Shown here: positions 7,591 through 60,892 of the stretch, piece by piece | How the letters are laid out: each line of letters begins with the position of its first letter | Position numbering within the stretch: the first letter of the stretch is position 1 | Assembly (NCBI GenBank): GCA_903825105.1 | Contig: CAIJZI010000007.1 | Span: 23,178 to 87,177, forward strand | DNA: 64,000 bases | Origin: an uncultured bacterium | Lineage (GTDB): Bacteria > Patescibacteriota > Minisyncoccia > Phycocordibacterales > Phycocordibacteraceae | Direction of reading: 5' to 3' | Program-made: the position numbers and the translations under genes | The notes under the pieces: generated by a model | Seen by the model: only the letters and a program-made list of their open reading frames with translations | Database searches by the model: none | What the model was told of the DNA's origin: nothing

Positions 7591-7616
7591 AGAGGTTCTG
7601 TTTAAAGTTTAAAAAA

Positions 7617-7646
7617 TGAGCAAGGGTAACCCTTGCTCATTTTTTG
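7617..7646 (+). terminator. rho-independent terminator with GGTAACC-core hairpin
   Basis: TGAGCAAGGG-TAA-CCCTTGCTCA followed by TTTTTT. Confidence 0.7.
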
Positions 7647-7920: not shown

Positions 7921-8466
7921 ATGAACAAAATGATTGCGTGGCTCCGAGAAGGTGCCACTTTCTGGGAGCTTTTTAAGTACCTCCCCGGGCTGATCCTCCT
8001 ACAAATGTTCTTGATTGTTGTAGGAGTCAAATTCGCGGGTCTGTTCTTTTCAGAAGCGTCGATCAACTCTAATGACGCTGTGATCGACACTGTGATCGCG
8101 CATTCCAACTTGGCAAAACAGTTCTTCATATTTACGGTGAAAGATCCCTTTTATGAAGAGGTGTTTTACCGGTTTACTCCATTCTGCGCGCTTTTGGTGT
8201 TGATGTGGCTAAAAAAGACCAAAGATGAAAAGGGTGCGGCGTGGGATGTTGCCGTGTACATTGTGGTTACCTCTGCATTCTTTGGATATGTGCATGGTCC
8301 TGGAGGTATTTTCATTCAAGGCCTGTCGGGCATTGTGCTCGCGATCGTATTCCTAAAATGGAGCGCGCTCGGTGCGAAACTGTTTAAAGGCCTGCTCGCC
8401 AGCACGATAGTGCATGGCGCGTACAATGGCGCCCTGCTGATCATACTGTTAAGTCTCCATCGCTAA
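7921..8466 (+). CDS. CPBP-family (CAAX protease/Abi) intramembrane metalloprotease
   Basis: motifs EEVFYRF (EExxxR), FGYVH (FxxxH), HGAYN (HxxxN); multi-TM. Confidence 0.7.
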   Translation: MNKMIAWLREGATFWELFKYLPGLILLQMFLIVVGVKFAGLFFSEASINSNDAVIDTVIAHSNLAKQFFIFTVKDPFYEEVFYRFTPFCALLVLMWLKKTKDEKGAAWDVAVYIVVTSAFFGYVHGPGGIFIQGLSGIVLAIVFLKWSALGAKLFKGLLASTIVHGAYNGALLIILLSLHR

Positions 8467-9864: not shown

Positions 9865-11091
9865 ATGACTGAGCCACTTTCGACCGACCCGTATAAAGGC
9901 GTCCGCGACTTTTATCCTAGCGATTATGCACGAATGAACGCGATGTTCGCGCGCATCCGCGAGACATTATTTAAGTGGGGTTATGAAGAATACAACGCAT
10001 CGCCCTTGGAACGCGCCGAGATCTACGAAGCGAAGACTTCAGAAGAAATCGTGAATGAGCAGACCTATACTTTCACCGACCGCGGAGAACGCCGCGTGAC
10101 GCTGCGCCCCGAGATGACACCAACCCTCGCGAGAATGGTCTCGGCGAAGCGCCGCGAGCTCGCCTTCCCGCTCCGCTGGTTCTCTATCGGCAATCGCTTC
10201 CGCTATGAGCGTCCACAAAAAGGCAGGCTGCGAGAGTTTTACCAAACCGACATCGACCTTATCGGCCTCCCTGAAGGCGAAGCAGATCTTGAGATTATTA
10301 AAATCGCTTCAGAAATTTTGAAATCTTTTGGTGCTAAAGAAAGTGACTTTATCATTCGCATCAATTCGCGTTCTCTCTTAAACGAAGCGTGTCGCGAGGC
10401 CGGGCTCACGAGTGACGGTGTGCGCCAGTACCTCCGTCTCCTCGATAAAAAAGCGAAAATAACGGTGGAAGAATTTAAAGAAGCACTCGCCGCGATTACT
10501 ACCAAAGATCCGCTCTCTCTTATTCAGACGGAAAAGATGGACGCATTTCTCGCGACTCTCAAAGAACGCGGCGTTATGAATGCGACCTTTGACGCTGGTA
10601 TCACGCGCGGGTTTGATTATTACACCGGGATGGTTTTTGAAATATATGATACAAACCCGACGAATCCGCGCGCACTCTTCGGCGGCGGTCGCTACGACGG
10701 GCTTGTCGCCCTCTTCGGCGGCGACCCGATCCCTGCAGTTGGGTTCGCGCTCGGTGATGTGACGCTTGCCGACTTCCTCGAGACGCACAATCTTGTACCG
10801 AAGTCAGACTTCGGTAAACCGAAACTCTATATCGGTACCCCGTCGGTAGATACGATTCCTGCGGCACAAACATTCGCTAACACACTCCGCGAACAGGGCG
10901 TGTGCGTCTTCGTTAATCTCACGAGCCGCGGGCTCGGCGACCAGATTAAAGATGCGGTGAAGCGCGACATTCCCTTCTTCCTCGCGTACGGCGCTGATGA
11001 AGAAAAAAATAAAACGGTAAAGATGAAAGTGCTCGCGACGGGTGAAGAAAAAAATATCCCTGTTTCTGAAATCATAAGCGTTATCAAATAA
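9865..11091 (+). CDS. hisS: histidyl-tRNA synthetase
   Basis: class II motifs; LRPEMTP, GGRYDGL; length 408 aa. Confidence 0.9.
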   Translation: MTEPLSTDPYKGVRDFYPSDYARMNAMFARIRETLFKWGYEEYNASPLERAEIYEAKTSEEIVNEQTYTFTDRGERRVTLRPEMTPTLARMVSAKRRELAFPLRWFSIGNRFRYERPQKGRLREFYQTDIDLIGLPEGEADLEIIKIASEILKSFGAKESDFIIRINSRSLLNEACREAGLTSDGVRQYLRLLDKKAKITVEEFKEALAAITTKDPLSLIQTEKMDAFLATLKERGVMNATFDAGITRGFDYYTGMVFEIYDTNPTNPRALFGGGRYDGLVALFGGDPIPAVGFALGDVTLADFLETHNLVPKSDFGKPKLYIGTPSVDTIPAAQTFANTLREQGVCVFVNLTSRGLGDQIKDAVKRDIPFFLAYGADEEKNKTVKMKVLATGEEKNIPVSEIISVIK

Positions 11092-11677: not shown

Positions 11678-12363
11678 AAACTTCATTCACTGTCCCTATC
11701 GCTATTATTATCGGAGGCATTGTTGTCGCTGGATCAGTTTATTTTTCAATAAAAAAATCGGTCTTCCCGATTTCAAATAATGGGAACCCTGCACTTGTGC
11801 GCCCAGTGAGCGCAAATGATCATCTCCTCGGCAACCCAGCAGCGCCCGTCGTCGTGGTTGAGTATGCAGACTTTGACTGTGAATTTTGTAAAAACTTCAG
11901 CGACACGATGAACCAGATAATCGCGAATGAAGGAGCGAACGGACGAGTCGCTTGGGTCTATCGCGAATTCCCTCTTATCGAGATCCATCCAAACGCCTTC
12001 TCGAGCGCAGAAGCCGCAGAGTGCGCTGCGAAGACTGCGGGGAATGACGCGTTCTGGAAATTTGCTGATGCCCTATTCGCCAGCCAACCAGCCGACCCTT
12101 CGCAGTATGGAACGCTCGCTGCTTCAGCAGGAATCAGGGGCAACGATTTCGCCACCTGTTTTGAAAACGCATCAACAACAGTCGCCACACGCATCAACGC
12201 TGATCGACAAAACGCCCTCGCTTCTGGCGCCGTCGGCACGCCATATTCACTCATTCTCGTAAACGGCCAAACACCTGTCGTAATGACCGGTGCGTATTCT
12301 TATGATGCAGTGAAGCAACTTATTGATCAGGCGCTCGCGACGGTAAACGAAAACGGTAAGTAA
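11674..12363 (+). CDS. DsbA-family thiol:disulfide oxidoreductase, membrane-anchored
   Basis: N-terminal TM, thioredoxin CxxC active site (DCEFCK). Confidence 0.7.
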   Translation: MKTSFTVPIAIIIGGIVVAGSVYFSIKKSVFPISNNGNPALVRPVSANDHLLGNPAAPVVVVEYADFDCEFCKNFSDTMNQIIANEGANGRVAWVYREFPLIEIHPNAFSSAEAAECAAKTAGNDAFWKFADALFASQPADPSQYGTLAASAGIRGNDFATCFENASTTVATRINADRQNALASGAVGTPYSLILVNGQTPVVMTGAYSYDAVKQLIDQALATVNENGK

Positions 12364-12448
12364 TTTTCGGGACTCCACGGCGCGAGGACTGAACAATTTT
12401 TCAGCAGAAAAATTGTGTGCCCGAAAATTACTTACCGCTTTCGTCATC
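12345..12448. repeat. long palindromic element (family B-related) spanning the convergent 3' ends of two genes and supplying both stop codons
   Basis: ACGAAA[AG]CGGTAAGTAATTTTCGGG on both strands (24/25 nt) encodes ..NGK* for dsbA-like and ..SGK* for the nuclease; centre ACGGCGCGAGG..AATTTTTCAGCAGAAAAATT shared with dnaE insertion. Confidence 0.6.
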
Positions 12449-13291: not shown

Positions 13292-13314
13292 CCGTACAGT
13301 ATAGCAACGCAAAA

Positions 13315-13365
13315 GTAGCAAGGGTAACCCTTACTACTTTTCACTTGGAAGTCGGACTTCCAAGT
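13315..13365 (-). terminator. twin hairpins downstream of rpoD: CTTGGAAG..CTTCCAAG hairpin plus GGTAACC-loop hairpin
   Basis: ACTTGGAAGTCGGACTTCCAAGT (13343-13365, abuts rpoD stop) and GTAGCAAGGGTAACCCTTACTAC (13315-13337). Confidence 0.55.
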
Positions 13366-16631: not shown

Positions 16632-16676
16632 CAAACCCGGCGCGAGCTCTAGCAGCTCGCGCCGATTCTTTTTTAT
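16632..16676 (+). terminator. rho-independent terminator
   Basis: GGCGCGAGCT-CTAGC-AGCTCGCGCC then GATTCTTTTTTAT. Confidence 0.7.
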
Positions 16677-16771
16677 GTTGGACATCGGAAGTCCAACACA
16701 TTTAGGCGTGCGGTTGACAGTGGCGAATATTTATACTAATCTCAATTTGGATAGATTTTTGCGAGGTGCTT

Positions 16772-16951: not shown

Positions 16952-17022
16952 AACGGCGCGAGGTAACCCTCGCGCCGTTTCTCTTTTGACTTGGAGGTCC
17001 GACCTCCAAGTTTTTTGTTTTT
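16952..17022. terminator. bidirectional twin terminator hairpins (GGTAACC-loop and CTTGGAGG..CCTCCAAG) between small ORF and rpoC
   Basis: AACGGCGCGAGG-TAA-CCCTCGCGCCGTT and CTTGGAGGTCCGACCTCCAAG followed by TTTTTTGTTTTT. Confidence 0.65.
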
Positions 17023-25431: not shown

Positions 25432-26154
25432 TTACTTCTCCATCCTCCATTTGTCAATATTCGCATGATGGCCGGTTTGGAGGACTTTTGGCACGCGATA
25501 ATTTTTACCTTTAAATAGAATAGTTTCGGGTCGCGTGTAGACCGCGCTCGAGGCGATGCGGAGCTCTTCAACCGATGTATCTTTGCCGAGAACCCCTGGC
25601 AGGCGGCGCGTAACAGCGTCGATGATCGCGAGCGCCGGCACTTCTCCGCCAGTATAAGTCGCCTCGCCAACAGCAAATTCTTTGACTGTTGCGAGTGTTT
25701 TCAAAATTTTCTTCGCGCGTTCGTCGATGCCTTCATAACGACCGCAGACGAGAATCACATTCTCGTATTCCGCGAGCGCGTCAGCATCTTTATTGGTGAA
25801 TTGTTTGGCGCTGGGCGAGAACCATACGACCAATGCCTTTCGTCCATGTTTGGACTTACGAAATCCCTCATCAGATGATGGATTTCGTAAGTCCCTCATA
25901 CGGCCCAATGCTTTCTGGACAGCCTTAATCACAGGCTCAGCCTGCATCACCATCCCTGGACCACCGCCATAGGGCTTGTCATCTACTTTTTTATAACTTC
26001 CTTCTGGCCCTTTAATAAAATCACGTGGATTCTGATATTTTATTGAAATCTTTTTTTCTTTTTGCGCACGACCAATGATTGATGTGTTCAGGTACGCATC
26101 GCAGGCTTCTGGAAACAATGTAATGAGATTAAATTTCATCGACCACCTGATCAA
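25432..26154 (-). CDS. trmD: tRNA (guanine37-N1)-methyltransferase TrmD with in-frame palindromic-element insertion
   Basis: MKFNLITLFPE N-terminus, SPOUT knot motifs; 15-aa insert DLRNPSSDEGFRKSK encoded by palindrome 25852-25894. Confidence 0.85.
   Translation of the reverse strand: MIRWSMKFNLITLFPEACDAYLNTSIIGRAQKEKKISIKYQNPRDFIKGPEGSYKKVDDKPYGGGPGMVMQAEPVIKAVQKALGRMRDLRNPSSDEGFRKSKHGRKALVVWFSPSAKQFTNKDADALAEYENVILVCGRYEGIDERAKKILKTLATVKEFAVGEATYTGGEVPALAIIDAVTRRLPGVLGKDTSVEELRIASSAVYTRPETILFKGKNYRVPKVLQTGHHANIDKWRMEK
25852..25894. repeat. palindromic element family A inside trmD coding sequence
   Basis: GGACTTACGAAATCC-CTCATCAGATGAT-GGATTTCGTAAGTCC; arms perfectly complementary; preceded by CATGTTTGG as in other copies. 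Confidence 0.8.
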
Positions 26155-35523: not shown

Positions 35524-36111
35524 TTAAATCAAATGTAAAAACGACTTGCGATGAATCGCGCAGGGGCCGTATTTTTTAAGCATTTCATAATGCAGTTTGG
35601 TGCCATAACCTTTGTGCTTCTCGAAGCCGTATTCAGGATATTTGATCGCGAGCTCGAGCATTAAACGATCGCGCAGAACCTTCGCCACGATAGAGGCGAG
35701 CGAGATAATCGGCACGAGGTCATCGCCGTTGATTATGGTCTCCTGTGAATATTCTTTTGGCGCATGTAACCCGCCATCGAGTAAAATGATGGATTTCGTA
35801 AACCCATCATTCGGCGCGAGTTTGTTCACACCGCGCGCGAGCGCTTTATTTATCGCCGGGACAATTCCCTCTTTATCAATCATTTCTGCACTCTCGAATT
35901 CAACAGCGAAACGCGCGTCGCCAAGGGCGACGCGTGCTTCCAGCATTTCAAAAATCTCCTCTCTTTTCTTCTCTGATAGCTTTTTAGAATCCGCGACACC
36001 CTTGAATTCTTTCATTACATCAAATCCCTCTGCCACTACCGCTACCCCAACAGCCACCGGCCCCGCGAGTGGTCCTCGCCCTGCCTCGTCAACTCCAATT
36101 AGAAACTTCAT
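35524..36111 (-). CDS. rnhB: ribonuclease HII
   Basis: GVDEAGRGPLAGPV active-site motif. Confidence 0.85.
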   Translation of the reverse strand: MKFLIGVDEAGRGPLAGPVAVGVAVVAEGFDVMKEFKGVADSKKLSEKKREEIFEMLEARVALGDARFAVEFESAEMIDKEGIVPAINKALARGVNKLAPNDGFTKSIILLDGGLHAPKEYSQETIINGDDLVPIISLASIVAKVLRDRLMLELAIKYPEYGFEKHKGYGTKLHYEMLKKYGPCAIHRKSFLHLI

Positions 36112-41197: not shown

Positions 41198-41217
41198 TGA
41201 ATTGTGTAAAAGAAAAA

Positions 41218-41250
41218 GTAGCAAAGGTAACCCTTGCTACTTTTTCTTTT
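41218..41250. terminator. GGTAACC-loop terminator hairpin between thrS and gyrB
   Basis: GTAGCAAAGG-TAA-CCCTTGCTAC then TTTTTCTTTT. Confidence 0.7.
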
Positions 41251-47610: not shown

Positions 47611-47638
47611 AGTAATTAAATTATAACACGCGGATGTT

Positions 47639-47683
47639 TGGATTTCGTCATCCCATCACTAATGATGGGTTTACGAAATCCAT
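47639..47683. repeat. palindromic element family A, intergenic copy (imperfect)
   Basis: GGATTTCGTCATCCC-ATCACTAATGAT-GGGTTTACGAAATCC preceded by ATGTTTGG as in the coding copies. Confidence 0.7.
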
Positions 47684-47690
47684 CACATTC

Positions 47691-48389
47691 CTACGATGTT
47701 TGGCCTTTTTTAAATGCTGAAGTAAGTTCAGCGAGAATAAGCTTCACTGTATCGCGAGATGCATCATTCGCGACAATCGGATACTGCGCATCGCGCACAT
47801 CGCAGTCAGAGCTCATAAGAGCGATGACTGGGATACCTGCGTCCTTCGCTTCCTTTACCGCGTATTTCTCGTGTTTCGAGTCAATAACGAGAAGAGCGTC
47901 AGGGCGCTTCGCGAGTGTCGTGATCCCATCGAGGCGCTGCTCGAGTCGTTTCTTCTCGCGATCGAGATACACGAGTTCAAGCTTTGTATGCTGTTTTGCT
48001 CGAATGCCTGCAGCAGACTTTTCAGAGAGTTCTGCGAGACGATCGATACGCTTCTTAATTTCTACCCAGTTCGAGATCGTCCCACCGAGCCAACGAGTCG
48101 CGACATAAGGAGCGGCGATTTCTTGAGCAGCCTTTTTAACCAGGTCGGCTATTTCGACTTTTCCACCAACAAAAAGCACTGTTTTCCCTTCTTTTGCGAG
48201 AGTAGACATTACTGCCTTCGCCGCGTCGAGCTGTTCGGCGGTTTGTACCAAATCGATGATTTCACTGCGGCCCTTGGTACCCATGACAAAAGGCTTCATC
48301 GACGGGTGTCGACGGCTTTTTACCTGCGCGAAATGAGCCCCTGCGCCAAAGAGGTTTTTTAATTCTGCCGAATCAGTTACTGATGTCAT
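47691..48389 (-). CDS. rpsB: 30S ribosomal protein S2
   Basis: conserved S2 N-terminal and central motifs; upstream of tsf. Confidence 0.9.
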
Positions 48390-49189
48390 TCCGATACTTT
48401 ACCTGAATCTTCGAGACTCTGCAACTGTATCTCTTCGATTATGTCGTCGATGCCCCCGGCTACGATCTTCGGCAGATTGTGCCACGACTTCTGTATCCGG
48501 TGATCAGTCACGCGATCTTGGAGGTAGTTATAGGTGCGAATTTTCTCTGACCGGTCTCCGGTGCCTATTTGTGCCTTCCGATTCGCCGCATGCTCCTTAG
48601 CCTCTTTTTCTTCCTGAAGCTGTTCGAGCTTCGCGGAGAGAATCTGCATCGCCTTCTCGCGGTTCGAGAGTTGACTCCGCTCGGAGGACGAGCGTACTTC
48701 GATGCCGGTAGGGATATGGACGAGCCGGACAGCCGTCTCAACCTTGTTCACATTCTGTCCGCCGGCGCCGCCGCTTCTCGAGAATTCCATCTTGAGATCT
48801 GCTGGATTTATTTCCATTTTTGACTTCGTACGAATCGGCAATACGGCAATCGAAGCAGTTGAGGTGTGGACTCTCCCCGATTTTTCGGTAAGGGGCACGC
48901 GTTGGACACGATGTACACCTGTCTCATAACGGAGTGCATCGTATGCGTCGGGGCTAGAAATTTCTATGGTTAAATCGTCGAGAACGCGCGTCTTCCAGCC
49001 GCGGTGTTCGGCATACTTCTGATACATTTCTTTTAAATCTCGTGCGAAGATAGCGGCCTCAGAGCCGCCCGCGCCGGCGCGCAGCTCCATCACCACAGAA
49101 CTCGGACGATCGTCCGATTGCTCTTCTGCTTTACCTTGTGCACCGTATTTTAAATATTCTGCGTAGTCCATATATTTATTAAAGCACAA
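48386..49189 (-). CDS. prfA: class I peptide chain release factor, RF1-like (PxT), short form lacking N-terminal domain 1
   Basis: GGQ ([11 protein letters not shown]), RVQRVPLTE (PxT-type), aligns to E. coli RF1 from ~residue 110; only 267 aa. Confidence 0.7.
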
Positions 49190-49195
49190 AATTCG

Positions 49196-49256
49196 AATAT
49201 CGAAATACGAAACAAATCCAAATTTATTTCGGATTTCGTGCTTCGTACTTCGAATT
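49196..49256. repeat. degenerate family-A-like imperfect palindrome in rpmE-prf intergenic region
   Basis: ACGAAACAAATCCAAAT..ATTTCGGATTTCGT. Confidence 0.35.
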
Positions 49257-49501
49257 TACTTCTTCTGTGCAGCACGCTTCTTGAAGCGTTCGACGCGACC
49301 GGTCTTGTCGAGCATACGGTCTTCACCAGTATAAAACGGGTGTGACTTACTCGAGATTTCTACCGTTACCTTTGGGTATTCTTTACCTTCAAACTTTGTC
49401 GTCTCATTGGTCACCATTGTTGAACCAATCAGAAACTGCCCGCCAGAGGCGAGATCTTCAAAAACGACGGGTCGATACCCTTCTGGGTGAATTTCCTTTT
49501 T
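49256..49501 (-). CDS. rpmE: 50S ribosomal protein L31 (type B, no zinc motif)
   Basis: [27 protein letters not shown]. Confidence 0.8.
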
Positions 49502-60028: not shown

Positions 60029-60892
60029 TCAGATGTAAAGAGCTTTTATAAACTTTTCACCCTCTTCTTTTGCTGGAACTTTCCCGTGCCAACGGTAGTC
60101 ATTTTCTATTTCTGTAACGCCTTTACCAGGGATAGTGCGCGCGACAATAAGCGTGGGCTTATCTTGTACTGATTTTGCCTTTTCAACAGCATCGATAAAA
60201 ATCTGTATGTCATTCCCGTCTATTTCAATCACATGCCAATTAAATGCCCTATATTTATCTGCGAGCGATTCTAACGGCATCACTTTTTCTGTCGTTCCGT
60301 CAATTTGAATATTGTTACGATCTATAATCGCAGTGAGGTTTGATAATTTATTTTTCCCGATGAACATTACTGCCTCCCAGGTATTTCCTTCTTCCTGCTC
60401 GCCATCGCTCATCACGCAGTACACCCTCCGCCCATGTTTGGACTTCGTAAATCCATCATCAGATGATGGATTTACGAAGTCCCTCAATACAAGTGCCATT
60501 CCTGCTGCTTGTGAGAGACCTTCGCCCAAAGGGCCAGAGGTAGTTTCGAGACCTGGTAATCGAATGCGCTCTGGATGCCCTTGCAGCCTGCTGCCAAATT
60601 TTCTTAAAGTTAAACATTCTTCAACAGGAAAATAGCCTGCGTGTGCCATAGCCGCATAAAGAACAGGACAAATGTGCCCATTACTTAAAACAAGCCGATC
60701 GCGCTCCTCCCACTCTGGGTTTTTTGGATCATGTTTCAGAATGTGAAAATAAAGAGCGGTAAAAATATCTGCCATGCCAAGCGCGCCTGCAGTGTGCCCG
60801 CTCCCCGCTTCAACAAGCATTCTGATAATCGTCTCGCGAATCATGCGCGCCTTTTCTTTGAGCGCGGTGATTTCTTCTTCAGTACATTTCAT
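60029..60892 (-). CDS. tktA: transketolase, N-terminal subunit (split enzyme) with in-frame palindromic-element insertion
   Basis: TPP-binding ..GSGHTAGALG.., ..SDGEQEEG..; 17-aa insert RDFVNPSSDDGFTKSKH encoded by palindrome 60440-60482. Confidence 0.85.
   Translation of the reverse strand: MKCTEEEITALKEKARMIRETIIRMLVEAGSGHTAGALGMADIFTALYFHILKHDPKNPEWEERDRLVLSNGHICPVLYAAMAHAGYFPVEECLTLRKFGSRLQGHPERIRLPGLETTSGPLGEGLSQAAGMALVLRDFVNPSSDDGFTKSKHGRRVYCVMSDGEQEEGNTWEAVMFIGKNKLSNLTAIIDRNNIQIDGTTEKVMPLESLADKYRAFNWHVIEIDGNDIQIFIDAVEKAKSVQDKPTLIVARTIPGKGVTEIENDYRWHGKVPAKEEGEKFIKALYI
60440..60482. repeat. palindromic element family A inside tktA coding sequence (perfect 43-bp palindrome)
   Basis: GGACTTCGTAAATCC-ATCATCAGATGAT-GGATTTACGAAGTCC, preceded by CATGTTTGG. 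Confidence 0.85.

Follow-up and report, generated by a model that had tools for sequence, protein, structure and literature searches.

A probable REPIN-like palindromic doublet translated in frame within the trmD gene of an uncultured member of the Patescibacteriota

The DNA examined here is a stretch of 64,000 nt from an uncultured bacterium of the Phycocordibacteraceae (assembly GCA_903825105.1, contig CAIJZI010000007.1). It is called the window below, positions being given in its own coordinates, and related loci or genomes are designated by L numbers. At positions 25852-25894, a palindrome is embedded in trmD, the gene encoding the tRNA m1G37 methyltransferase; the first-pass annotation had reported it from the sequence alone, and both this exact position and its in-frame location are borne out by the letters and by the translation of the open reading frame (ORF). 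The comparison with relatives indicates that this palindrome is, with a probability of about 70%, a doublet of repetitive extragenic palindromic (REP) units resembling a REPIN and fixed in frame in a tolerant loop that precedes the strand leading into the SPOUT knot of TrmD. The palindrome belongs to a repeat family, is translated in frame, is present in some orthologues and absent from others, and covaries at the DNA level; in three related genomes, in-frame doublets match the unit found beside genes of the REP-associated tyrosine transposase (RAYT) type. Mobilization by a Y1 enzyme, including that of the window copy, would be expected by analogy with known systems; as the window contains no transposase gene, we only infer this step for its trmD copy.

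The 43-nt core is made of two arms that are 95% complementary in a repeat search and are separated by one nucleotide, the single mismatch opposing C at 25867 and T at 25879. It extends on both sides to an element of about 54 nt (ATG...CAT), a feature that the first-pass annotation had not described, any more than the spacer copy, the rnhB singlet and the mini-palindromic arms presented below. This doublet is composed of two inverted hairpin units of 25-26 nt, ATG..GGAC..GTCC..CAT, joined by C-W-G. The consensus over the copies, 54-55 nt long, is ATGTTTGG-ACTT(ACG/CGT)AAATCC-nTCAT-C-W-G-ATGAn-GGATTT(CGT/ACG)AAGT-CCCTCA(A)T. On the gene strand the ORF reads ..GRMRDLRNPSSDEGFRKSKHGRK.. around the element, and the peptide stretch across the insert is ..RDLRNPSSDEGFRK... 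Each 15-nt arm is itself a mini-palindrome, GGACTT-NNN-AAGTCC, with a 3-nt loop that is either ACG or CGT, depending on the copy. The element folds with -30.8 kcal/mol as RNA (z -6.3) and -20.9 as DNA, the z values lying at about -6 to -8. An intrinsic terminator was considered and rejected, no U-run being present: the letters that come after the hairpin are AAACAUGGACG when read on the gene strand and CUCAUACGG on the opposite one. In Rfam 15 the element stays below the gathering threshold, and the sole window match at threshold is one tRNA.

A second copy is found in the transketolase gene tktA, and the differences initially listed between the two are correct: the tktA copy is perfect, its centre contains ATCATC where that of trmD has CTCATC, and TTCGTAA and TTACGAA are swapped. 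The change between ACG and CGT that underlies this swap affects both arms, which leaves the long hairpin perfect. It had been attributed to a nested inversion, but a single one is impossible because a segment centred on the palindrome axis inverts into the same sequence; the difference requires either two loop flips or, in each arm, three compensated substitutions. Both coding copies are indeed preceded by CATGTTTGG; rather than a target motif, this is the outer part of the repeat unit itself (ATGTTTGG here, ATGTAGG or ATGTTGG in relatives). The trmD-site copies of L091, L092 and L093 all have the ACG...CGT loops of the window, which is therefore an old, site-specific state, and the same four copies also have the flank context ..KH-GR in common.

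The recurrence of this repeat in the window is beyond chance. With up to three mismatches, the arm 15-mer has 12 matches against 1.83 expected, a count that 0 of 100 shuffles reach, and nhmmer retrieves three full copies, with E 2e-17 to 3e-14, as well as a partial one in rnhB. Hairpin units of the ATG..CAT form number four against 0.2 in shuffles, three of them in the REP family and the fourth (7616) being a terminator-like hairpin. In total, five related copies are present in the 64 kb, namely doublets in trmD, tktA and the rpsB-tsf spacer, and singlets in rnhB and in one spacer (Table 1). Three of the five (trmD, tktA, rnhB) lie in frame within intact ORFs and two are intergenic. The tktA core (60440-60482) is a perfect 21+1+21 palindrome. 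At the position of the rnhB singlet, the rnhB genes of L092 and L093 encode DAALVR and are 2 aa shorter. The LacPavin Kaiserbacteria metagenome-assembled genome (MAG; L003) has a copy whose location seems to be the same rpsB-tsf spacer. That the trmD palindrome resembles, at the DNA level, copies located in a spacer and in unrelated genes upholds the original view of a dispersed in-frame element that behaves like the Rickettsia palindromic elements (RPEs).

The doublet of the rpsB-tsf spacer is preceded by GATGTTTGG, and this 9-mer stands on both sides of it (47633-47641 and 47695-47703), its second occurrence overlapping the last codons and the stop of rpsB (GGCCAAACATCGTAG on the gene strand). 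The pair could be a target duplication, the remnant of a third unit or a coincidence. To judge from peptides such as DIGSPTSDVGLPIS, the intergenic singlet may share its stem with the doublet arms of certain relatives. Single-unit palindromes of the GGAC-N7-GTCC form, initially regarded as a candidate separate family, proved to be either ordinary terminators or singlets belonging to the same flavour or to sister ones.

Beyond the window, the tktA-type centre was searched in one genome per species and was found in MAGs of Ca. Kaiserbacteria, Paceibacterota and Ryanbacteria, five copies (exact matches) being present in one MAG. The copies of relatives lie in both orientations, in spacers and in genes encoding a P0121-related protein, a TatD-like protein, a TsaD-like protein and a 476-aa protein (assigned by sequence motifs alone); the coding copies of tktA type all read D/G-F-V-N-P-S-S-D-D/E-G-F-T-K-S/P. 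The exact TrmD protein of the window is also encoded in public, independent metagenome assemblies, which rules out a local assembly artefact. Among 120 TrmD homologues with 71-100% identity (PF01746 on all listed), a minimal loop of 8-11 aa is found in 37 and an intermediate one in 49, the remaining 34 having a loop longer by at least 13 aa; the corresponding states of the tktA loop among close TktA homologues are minimal in 25, intermediate in 42 and long in 53. Peptides of the long class have the symmetric form D-abc-P-[ST]-S-D-[VDE]-G-c'b'a'-S, in which abc is hypervariable, for instance DVRRPTSDVGRRTS, DIGCPTSDVGHPMS, DLGGPTSDVGPPRS and DIRCLSSDERHRMS. Many intermediate loops look like one arm or half copies, as HVGRRTSHMKK in TrmD and MSGRTTSRH in TktA. 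In a neighbour-joining (NJ) tree of TrmD, which is weakly resolved, full, partial and empty states are interleaved. The segment is absent from many close TrmD orthologues and has DNA copies elsewhere; it is therefore not the conserved, lineage-specific part of TrmD, without DNA similarity to the other copies, that had been named as the observation contradicting a mobile element.

The two sites differ in their sequence conservation. The tktA doublet of the window is identical at 54/54 nt to that of Paceibacterota STC_91 (L008), against 72% identity over the rest of the gene; at third codon positions, 18/18 agree in the doublet and 46% in the remainder of the gene. The trmD element has 72% and 61% nucleotide identity with those of L092 and L095 respectively, the gene itself being at 70-73%. 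At the protein level, window and L092 agree at 44% of the residues in the element and 77% in the rest of TrmD; both palindromes are nevertheless essentially perfect, and the trmD sites of L092 and L093 retain perfect 21-nt arms despite at least 5 differences per arm. In L014, the trmD site of a 73%-identical orthologue (10229-10257) contains only a small hairpin, ACCGTAAGGCaacGCCTTACGGT (peptide KTVRQRLTV), which may have collapsed from a larger element or belong to an unrelated flavour, and a RAYT-like gene lies 3 kb upstream of this trmD. Two in-frame doublets, ADMRDIVSPSSDDGLTMSEH and CMGFVNPTSDVGFTKPKL, occur in one database protein, P0121 (342 aa); it appears to be a fusion or a mis-call: its N-terminal part is similar to the protein that hosts the element in L004/L006, and the part that follows looks like a tRNA-guanine transglycosylase.

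The symmetry of the element is kept at the DNA level, in all likelihood without selection acting on the peptide or on a hairpin of the mRNA. This was examined on 8 doublets from four gene sites for which the DNA was recovered, the 43-nt cores being aligned without gaps. As a single long hairpin, 97.6% of the cells are paired, and 12 of the 21 pairs have changed on both sides against 0 on one side only. Not one of the 168 pair cells is a G-U pair. In the controls, no shuffle out of 500 attains the observed value in any of the five measures, and sliding the partner by 1-3 columns lowers the pairing to 32-45%. An alternative fold with two mini-hairpins and an apical stem gives 94% pairing and 8 compensated pairs. 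Such strict Watson-Crick covariation, together with the occurrence of copies in both orientations and in spacers, argues for a DNA hairpin or cruciform, or for a symmetrization templated during replication, rather than for a selected mRNA structure. The upkeep would be ensured by the hairpin requirement of a transposase, by arm-to-arm templated correction, or by both.

A candidate transposase is provided by the relatives. Genes of the PF01797 (Y1_Tnp) family, encoding about 210-231 aa, are located near the tkt operon or trmD in L094, L096, L008, L014 and L099, the last having two of them. The four proteins scanned (L094, L096, L008, L014) are all above the Pfam Y1_Tnp cut-off, and their sole NCBIfam match is NF047646, REP-associated tyrosine transposase, with E 1e-8 to 1e-12; the precomputed Y1_Tnp hit of the two L099 genes is marked weak, and these align with the other four. 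Across the six proteins, the H-x-H histidines and the tyrosine of a Y-[IL/V]-H/N-x-N motif are invariant, the latter motif resembling the RAYT catalytic helix. A hairpin singlet specific to the genome stands beside every one of the six genes, and on both sides in L094, L096, L014 and for both L099 genes. A RAYT gene flanked by its cognate hairpin units is a described arrangement (PMC3733652, PMC5581495, PMC3337134).

In three genomes the in-frame doublets consist of the genome's own RAYT-flanking unit. The tktA doublet of L094 is ATGTTGGACCTCGGAGGTCCCACATC-t-GATGTAGGACCTCCGAGGTCCAACAT, and 23/25 positions per unit, counted manually, match the singlet flanking the RAYT-like gene. The trmD doublet (L095 4113-4167) and the tktA doublet (L099) of GCA_041642995.1 are both built of the unit ATGAAAGACATCnGATGTCTTTCAT that flanks the gene named RAYT2. 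The tktA doublet of the LacPavin MAG is made of the GTCCAACAC unit, about 22/25 positions being those of the RAYT flank (manual count), and is read in another frame. As to the window, its tktA doublet occupies the same TktA loop as that of L094 to within about two codons, its precise limits being ambiguous, and the two have common outer ends, ATGTT(T)GGAC ... GTCC ... A(A)T, and a common apex, CATCwGATG, which places them in the same class.

The RAYT-like genes of relatives are found directly upstream of gap in L096 and L099, and between fba and the L25 gene in L094 and L099. The fba-L25 position is empty in the window organism (L097); the window end falls inside gap, and the position upstream of gap lies outside the window. 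L097, L100 and one ENA contig, which are independent assemblies of this organism, all begin at the same base inside gap (window ~63616), suggesting strain variation or a repeat just upstream, near the RAYT position of relatives. Genes of the RAYT2 type also contain an in-frame singlet of their own flanking unit at the same protein position, in L008 (6960-6984, ..HDVGSTRPYI..) and in L099 (~8127-8167, ..GMKDIGGLSFRR..); the RAYT genes of L094 and L014 are devoid of an internal singlet.

The insert can be located precisely in the TrmD protein. Compared with H. influenzae TrmD, the window protein contains 17 additional aa between ..AIHTA and KAAAGEGAKVIYLSPQG, shortly before the strand ..KVIYLSPQG. 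In orthologues from the candidate phyla radiation (CPR) whose site is empty, these 17 aa are missing (L011 KTLRNKRGKKVIIWF, L012 KILKGKKGKTVAIWF), the sites being empty at the DNA level as well; when metagenomes were scanned with the alignment of TrmD, the loci retrieved were mainly distant, L011, L012 and L014 being the only close ones among the matches listed. In an AlphaFold model (35 homologues, mean predicted local distance difference test score, pLDDT, of 70), residues 79-101 form a low-pLDDT coil between helix 61-78 and strand 102-107. The YLSP segment that follows this strand is the first S-adenosylmethionine-binding loop of the TrmD trefoil knot, so that the insert stands a few residues upstream of the SPOUT knot and not inside it. 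As to the alignment that had been recommended to position the insert relative to the knot, the AlphaFold model and the comparison with H. influenzae TrmD assign the insert to the loop just before the strand leading into the knot. The remainder of the window TrmD is intact, including the motifs invariant among homologues. The peptide is probably neutral, 17-18 extra hydrophilic and turn-rich residues being tolerated in this loop. The frame bias suspected by analogy with RPEs is real as a restriction of the frame, but for the tktA type it simply reflects the stop codons: TGA and TAA block two of three frames on either strand, which fixes the frame.

These data can be assembled into the following scheme. 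A non-autonomous doublet would fold into one 21-26-bp hairpin and would be the cognate repeat of one or two RAYT-like Y1 genes in relatives. Y1 enzymes of the HUH type encoded by the IS200/IS605 insertion sequences (ISs) recognize folded single-stranded DNA hairpins and generate no target-site duplication. By analogy with these and with RAYTs, the transposase would bind the folded single-stranded hairpin and then cut and paste it, or copy it. The doublet may have landed in the trmD loop between the helix ending ..AVQKAL and the strand VVWFSP leading into the knot, where it would simply be translated, since its 54 nt are divisible by three and no stop codon interrupts the frame in use; TrmD would gain 17-18 residues and stay intact. 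The hairpin requirement of the transposase, arm-to-arm templated correction, or the two combined would then hold the palindrome in its symmetrical state.

Several other explanations have to be weighed against this scheme. An unlikely one, which nevertheless deserves attention, is that the palindrome is an immobile relic, inherited vertically from a single ancient insertion in the trmD (and tktA) loop, with a symmetry due only to intra-strand template switching and flavours produced by drift and arm-to-arm copying. Orthologous descent does predict the ACG...CGT state and the ..KH-GR flank common to the window, L091, L092 and L093, and the relic hypothesis is also consistent with an element that is no better conserved than its gene between the window and L092 or L095, with the strictly Watson-Crick covariation, with the decay to half copies in many lineages, and with a window that has degenerate tags and is devoid of a transposase. 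It leaves unexplained, however, why in three genomes the doublets are equal to the genome's own RAYT-flanking unit located elsewhere, why identical doublets stand at five loci of one MAG, and why the tktA doublet is fully identical between genomes whose synonymous sites are saturated; the interleaving of full, partial and empty states in the TrmD tree, weakly resolved as it is, also stands against it. An improbable hypothesis is that of a functional structured element, in which the hairpin is selected for a role of the host in mRNA (RNase III site, pause, stability) or in DNA (site of a dimeric protein) and has been recruited into several genes. The hairpin is indeed very stable, its apex CATCwGATG and base GGAC/GTCC are conserved while the mid-stem is variable, the tktA copy is 100% conserved between genomes, and RNase III is encoded in L091-L093. 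RNA structures, however, normally use the G-U pairs that are totally missing here, and the copies are found in both orientations relative to transcription, in spacers and in functionally unrelated host genes, with no Rfam match. Moreover, the insert is missing from about one third of the close TrmD and one fifth of the close TktA homologues, and many more have only decayed remnants; the element is therefore dispensable.

Even less credit can be given to the two remaining explanations. A classical miniature inverted-repeat transposable element (MITE) or RPE-type element, moved by a DDE transposase through terminal inverted repeats with target-site duplications and unrelated to Y1 enzymes, is very improbable. 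Small size, palindromy, dispersion and in-frame insertion are reminiscent of the Rickettsia RPEs, and the spacer copy has its 9-mer on both sides; but no target-site duplication exists at trmD, at tktA or at 10 copies of relatives, direct repeats being absent at 12/13 copies examined, and a length of ~54 nt compares with 70-300 bp reported for MITEs and ~150 bp for RPEs. Furthermore, the only transposase family in the gene tables of the fetched loci is Y1_Tnp, flanked by the unit, and no parent IS was seen there. The least probable hypothesis places selection on the protein, the peptide D-x3-P-S-S-D-x-G-x3-S being a lineage-specific loop (interaction or turn motif) and the palindrome incidental. 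The peptide is hydrophilic and turn-rich, and its frame is the same wherever the doublet lies in a gene; yet the tktA-type frame is forced by the stops, the LacPavin tktA doublet uses another frame, and the same DNA is found in spacers. The maintenance of all synonymous positions of the tktA doublet is also contrary to selection on the peptide, as are the variable residues, which change freely provided that the arms stay complementary, and the low-confidence coil of the structure model.

The interpretation of the palindrome as a REPIN-like doublet has its own weaknesses. The evidence comes from comparison, and transposition was not directly observed. No Y1/RAYT gene was detected by tblastn and hidden Markov models (HMMs) in the 64-kb window; the NF047646 scores of the candidate enzymes, 32-45 bits, are below the cut-off of 80, and a profile of the six RAYT-like proteins retrieved no solved structure from the PDB sequences at E up to 1. 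The units of the window contain GATG/GAGG where the copies of L092, L094 and L008 have GTAG, and may consequently be poor substrates or relics. Likewise, the RAYTs seen in L008 and in the LacPavin MAG, two genomes with an identical tktA-type doublet, are flanked by units of other flavours; the cognate enzyme of the exact window flavour is therefore not among the RAYTs seen, and the trmD copy may be a relic. Lastly, the complete tktA identity in a gene with only 46% identical third positions cannot be accounted for by the simple neutral decay of an old insertion; a recent insertion at the same site in both genomes, a conversion from other copies, or a sequence-specific constraint would each explain it.

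Some searches delimit the reach of these comparisons. With approximate sequences of IS200 TnpA and of the E. coli RAYT as queries, tblastn gave no matches in the loci first examined. The profile built from the four window translations found just 3 matches at E up to 0.001 among 1.84 billion representatives; short inserts are invisible at 50% clustering, which precludes a proteome-wide census of the host families. A query made of a 42-aa tandem of two peptide versions yielded no candidate protein with three shared words. Viral contigs scanned for the window-type and GTAG-type centres gave 0 matches, and thus no sign of a phage vector.

A tentative extension of the REPIN-like interpretation, which we regard as possible but doubtful, is that the trmD and tktA loops are sites repeatedly re-written with the REP flavour that the RAYT of the genome currently recognizes, either by site-specific re-insertion or by RAYT-driven conversion at an existing hairpin. 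Such re-writing would explain that unrelated stems at the same codons match the RAYT flanks of each genome, that one flavour is 100% identical across host genes saturated at synonymous sites, and that full, half and empty states are interleaved.

Among the systems already described, the closest one is that of REP doublets or REPINs with a RAYT-type transposase (Bertels & Rainey 2011, PMC3116915, PMC3337134; Bertels et al. 2017, PMC5581495). As in a REPIN, two short palindromic units are inverted around a short spacer and form one long hairpin, the unit of 25-26 nt is over-represented and dispersed, and the element encodes no enzyme. As in the RAYT system, relatives contain Y1/HUH genes that are low in copy number (one or two) and bordered by the same unit, with a genome-specific flavour; in L094, GCA_041642995.1 (L095 and L099) and the LacPavin MAG (L096), this flanking unit is equal or nearly equal to that of the in-frame doublets. 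REPINs, however, are extragenic by definition, whereas the trmD, tktA and rnhB copies are inside ORFs and translated. The present doublets are also very compact (54 nt with a 3-nt joint) and are few, with 5 copies in the 64-kb window and 5 exact matches in one MAG against hundreds in some REPIN-containing genomes. The Y1 proteins, for their part, are divergent, with scores below the NCBIfam cut-off for RAYTs, and the genes seen are not flanked by units of the window's flavour.

Intragenic REPs have nevertheless been reported by Di Nocera et al. 2013 (PMC3733652), who described singlets and dimers lying wholly within ORFs of known proteins, the dimers encoding 20-30 aa, with examples in Opitutus terrae and Rickettsia conorii, and who considered such insertions possibly neutral in loops or linkers. 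The GTAG-tagged REPs have stems of 5-13 bp and loops of 2-20 nt; the stems of the window family are 6-12 bp and its loops 1-3 nt, also in inverted dimers, and the homologous copies of L092, L094 and L008 do have a GTAG beside the stem, as in GTAG/CGTC-tagged REPs. By contrast, the GATG/GAGG tag of the window is outside the listed forms GYAG, GYRG, GTRG, GTMG and GTGG, the tag is base-paired here instead of unpaired (the GTAG of L092, L094 and L008 pairs with CTAC), and the taxon belongs to the CPR instead of the Proteobacteria, Opitutus or Rickettsia. RPEs, as summarized in PMC10969869 from Ogata et al. 2000 and 2002, are ~100-150 bp long, Rickettsia-specific and without known transposase. The kinship with RPEs put forward in the first-pass annotation holds for the behaviour, both being palindromic selfish DNAs inserted in frame in unrelated housekeeping genes of a reduced genome, with a conserved fold-compatible peptide; it does not hold for the system itself, since RPEs are two to three times longer than 54 nt whereas the present element has two REP units and a candidate transposase in relatives. 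With IS200/IS605 (HUH superfamily, PMC6006769) the system has in common a Y1 HUH enzyme and the lack of target-site duplication, but its Y1 genes are not part of multi-copy ISs with distinct ends; like RAYTs, they occur in few copies between identical palindromic singlets.

Table 1. Positions of the trmD element, of the other copies of the repeat in the window, and of the Y1 genes and their flanking singlets in relatives.
Feature	Position	Strand	Details
Palindromic core, 43 nt	25852..25894	strand-neutral	GGACTTACGAAATCC-CTCATCAGATGAT-GGATTTCGTAAGTCC; 21-nt arms, centre A at 25873
Full doublet in trmD	25846..25899	minus	54 nt, plus strand ATGTTTGG...CCCTCAT; translated MRDLRNPSSDEGFRKSKH
trmD doublet, unit 1	25846..25871		ATGTTTGGACTT-ACG-AAATCCCTCAT; boundaries from window singlets and RAYT-flanking singlets of relatives
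trmD doublet, unit 2	25875..25899		ATGATGGATTT-CGT-AAGTCCCTCAT; joined to unit 1 by C-A-G (25872-25874)
trmD (tRNA m1G37 methyltransferase)	25432..26139	minus	235 aa, intact; PF01746; PDB TrmD matches E 1e-42
Second doublet	60434..60488	minus	perfect palindrome, in frame in tktA, transketolase N-terminal subunit (60029..60892, minus); reads LRDFVNPSSDDGFTKSKH
Third doublet, degenerate	47634..47688		rpsB-tsf spacer; 20-nt arms, 2 mismatches, 4-nt loop
Single unit in rnhB	35786..35810	minus	ATGATGGATTTCGTAAACCCATCAT; in frame in rnhB (35524..36111, minus); reads NDGFTKSII
Intergenic singlet, sister flavour	16675..16701		ATGTTGGACATCGGAAGTCCAACACAT; spacer
Y1 gene, L096 (LacPavin Kaiserbacteria)	5072-5731		gene-table Pfam; flanking singlet ATGTCCAACACtcgGTGTTGGACAT
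Y1 gene, L094	14639-15295		gene-table Pfam; flanking singlet CATGTAGGACCTCgGAGGTCCTACATG
Y1 genes, L099	528-1208 and 7629-8324		gene-table Pfam; flanking singlet of RAYT2 ATGAAAGACATCnGATGTCTTTCAT
Y1 gene, L008	6821-7447		tblastn; flanking singlet ATGTAGGGTCTnnnAGACCCTACAT
Y1 gene, L014	6395-7030		tblastn; flanking singlet AAGTTAGGACATCnGATGTCCTAACTT

Other hairpins were encountered in the course of this analysis. That of positions 16989-17011, ACTTGGAGGtccgaCCTCCAAGT, is followed by a T-run, and its 9-bp stem is the same as in the flanks of RAYT1 (L099 528-1208: ACTTGGAGGcttttCCTCCAAGT, ACTTGGAGGaaaagCCTCCAAGT); it may represent another REP family of the window, unless it is simply a terminator. 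A terminator-like family with the stem (A)GTAGCAAGGGT-a-ACCCTTGCTAC(T) and A/T runs on both sides occurs at 7611-7645, 13311-13341 and 41208-41250, as well as in L093 (18492-18520); these hairpins could be bidirectional terminators and are distinct from the REP family. Another hairpin family consists of inverted repeats rich in CGAAAT/ATTTCG, with a long imperfect one at 49182-49264 and a similar one in the rpsB-tsf spacer of L099 (12270-12390). The longest inverted repeat of the window, at 12347-12444, has 25-nt arms (ACGAAAACGGTAAGTAATTTTCGGG / CCCGAAAATTACTTACCGCTTTCGT) that are 96% complementary and 48 nt apart. Outside the window, the Planctomycetota MAG contig JBGPOP010000002.1 (L005 3015-3037) contains the palindrome CCATGAAAATCCGTCATCAGATGATGGATTCTCATGG inside a long ORF, with the 23-nt centre of the element; by our own estimate ~0.03 chance matches were expected in the collection, and this palindrome was set aside, its arms being unrelated.

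The trmD palindrome belongs to a known kind of selfish DNA, that of REP/RAYT systems and RPE-like in-frame palindromes, and its mechanism is not new. REPs, REPINs and RAYTs have been described as extragenic and mostly in Proteobacteria, in-frame palindromes are best known from Rickettsia, and a literature search found no description of RAYT/REPIN or of in-frame palindromes in CPR, Patescibacteria or Parcubacteria. Here, compact REP doublets reside in streamlined, Kaiserbacteria-like CPR genomes, largely inside essential genes, with candidate RAYTs near the pentose-phosphate and trmD neighbourhoods. They account for odd 17-18-aa inserts and for length heterogeneity in CPR housekeeping proteins, and are a warning that such inserts are not to be taken for lineage-specific loops with a function. 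Public metagenomes already contain hundreds of orthologous sites in the filled, half or empty state, through which REPIN turnover and RAYT specificity could be approached by comparison alone. The cross-genome pattern, in which the stems found in two loops of two essential enzymes track the RAYT of each genome, should be of particular interest to specialists. If the re-writing of these loops is true, in-frame doublets in essential genes would constitute a natural, alignable record of REPIN-RAYT co-evolution and a handle on the movement of REPINs.

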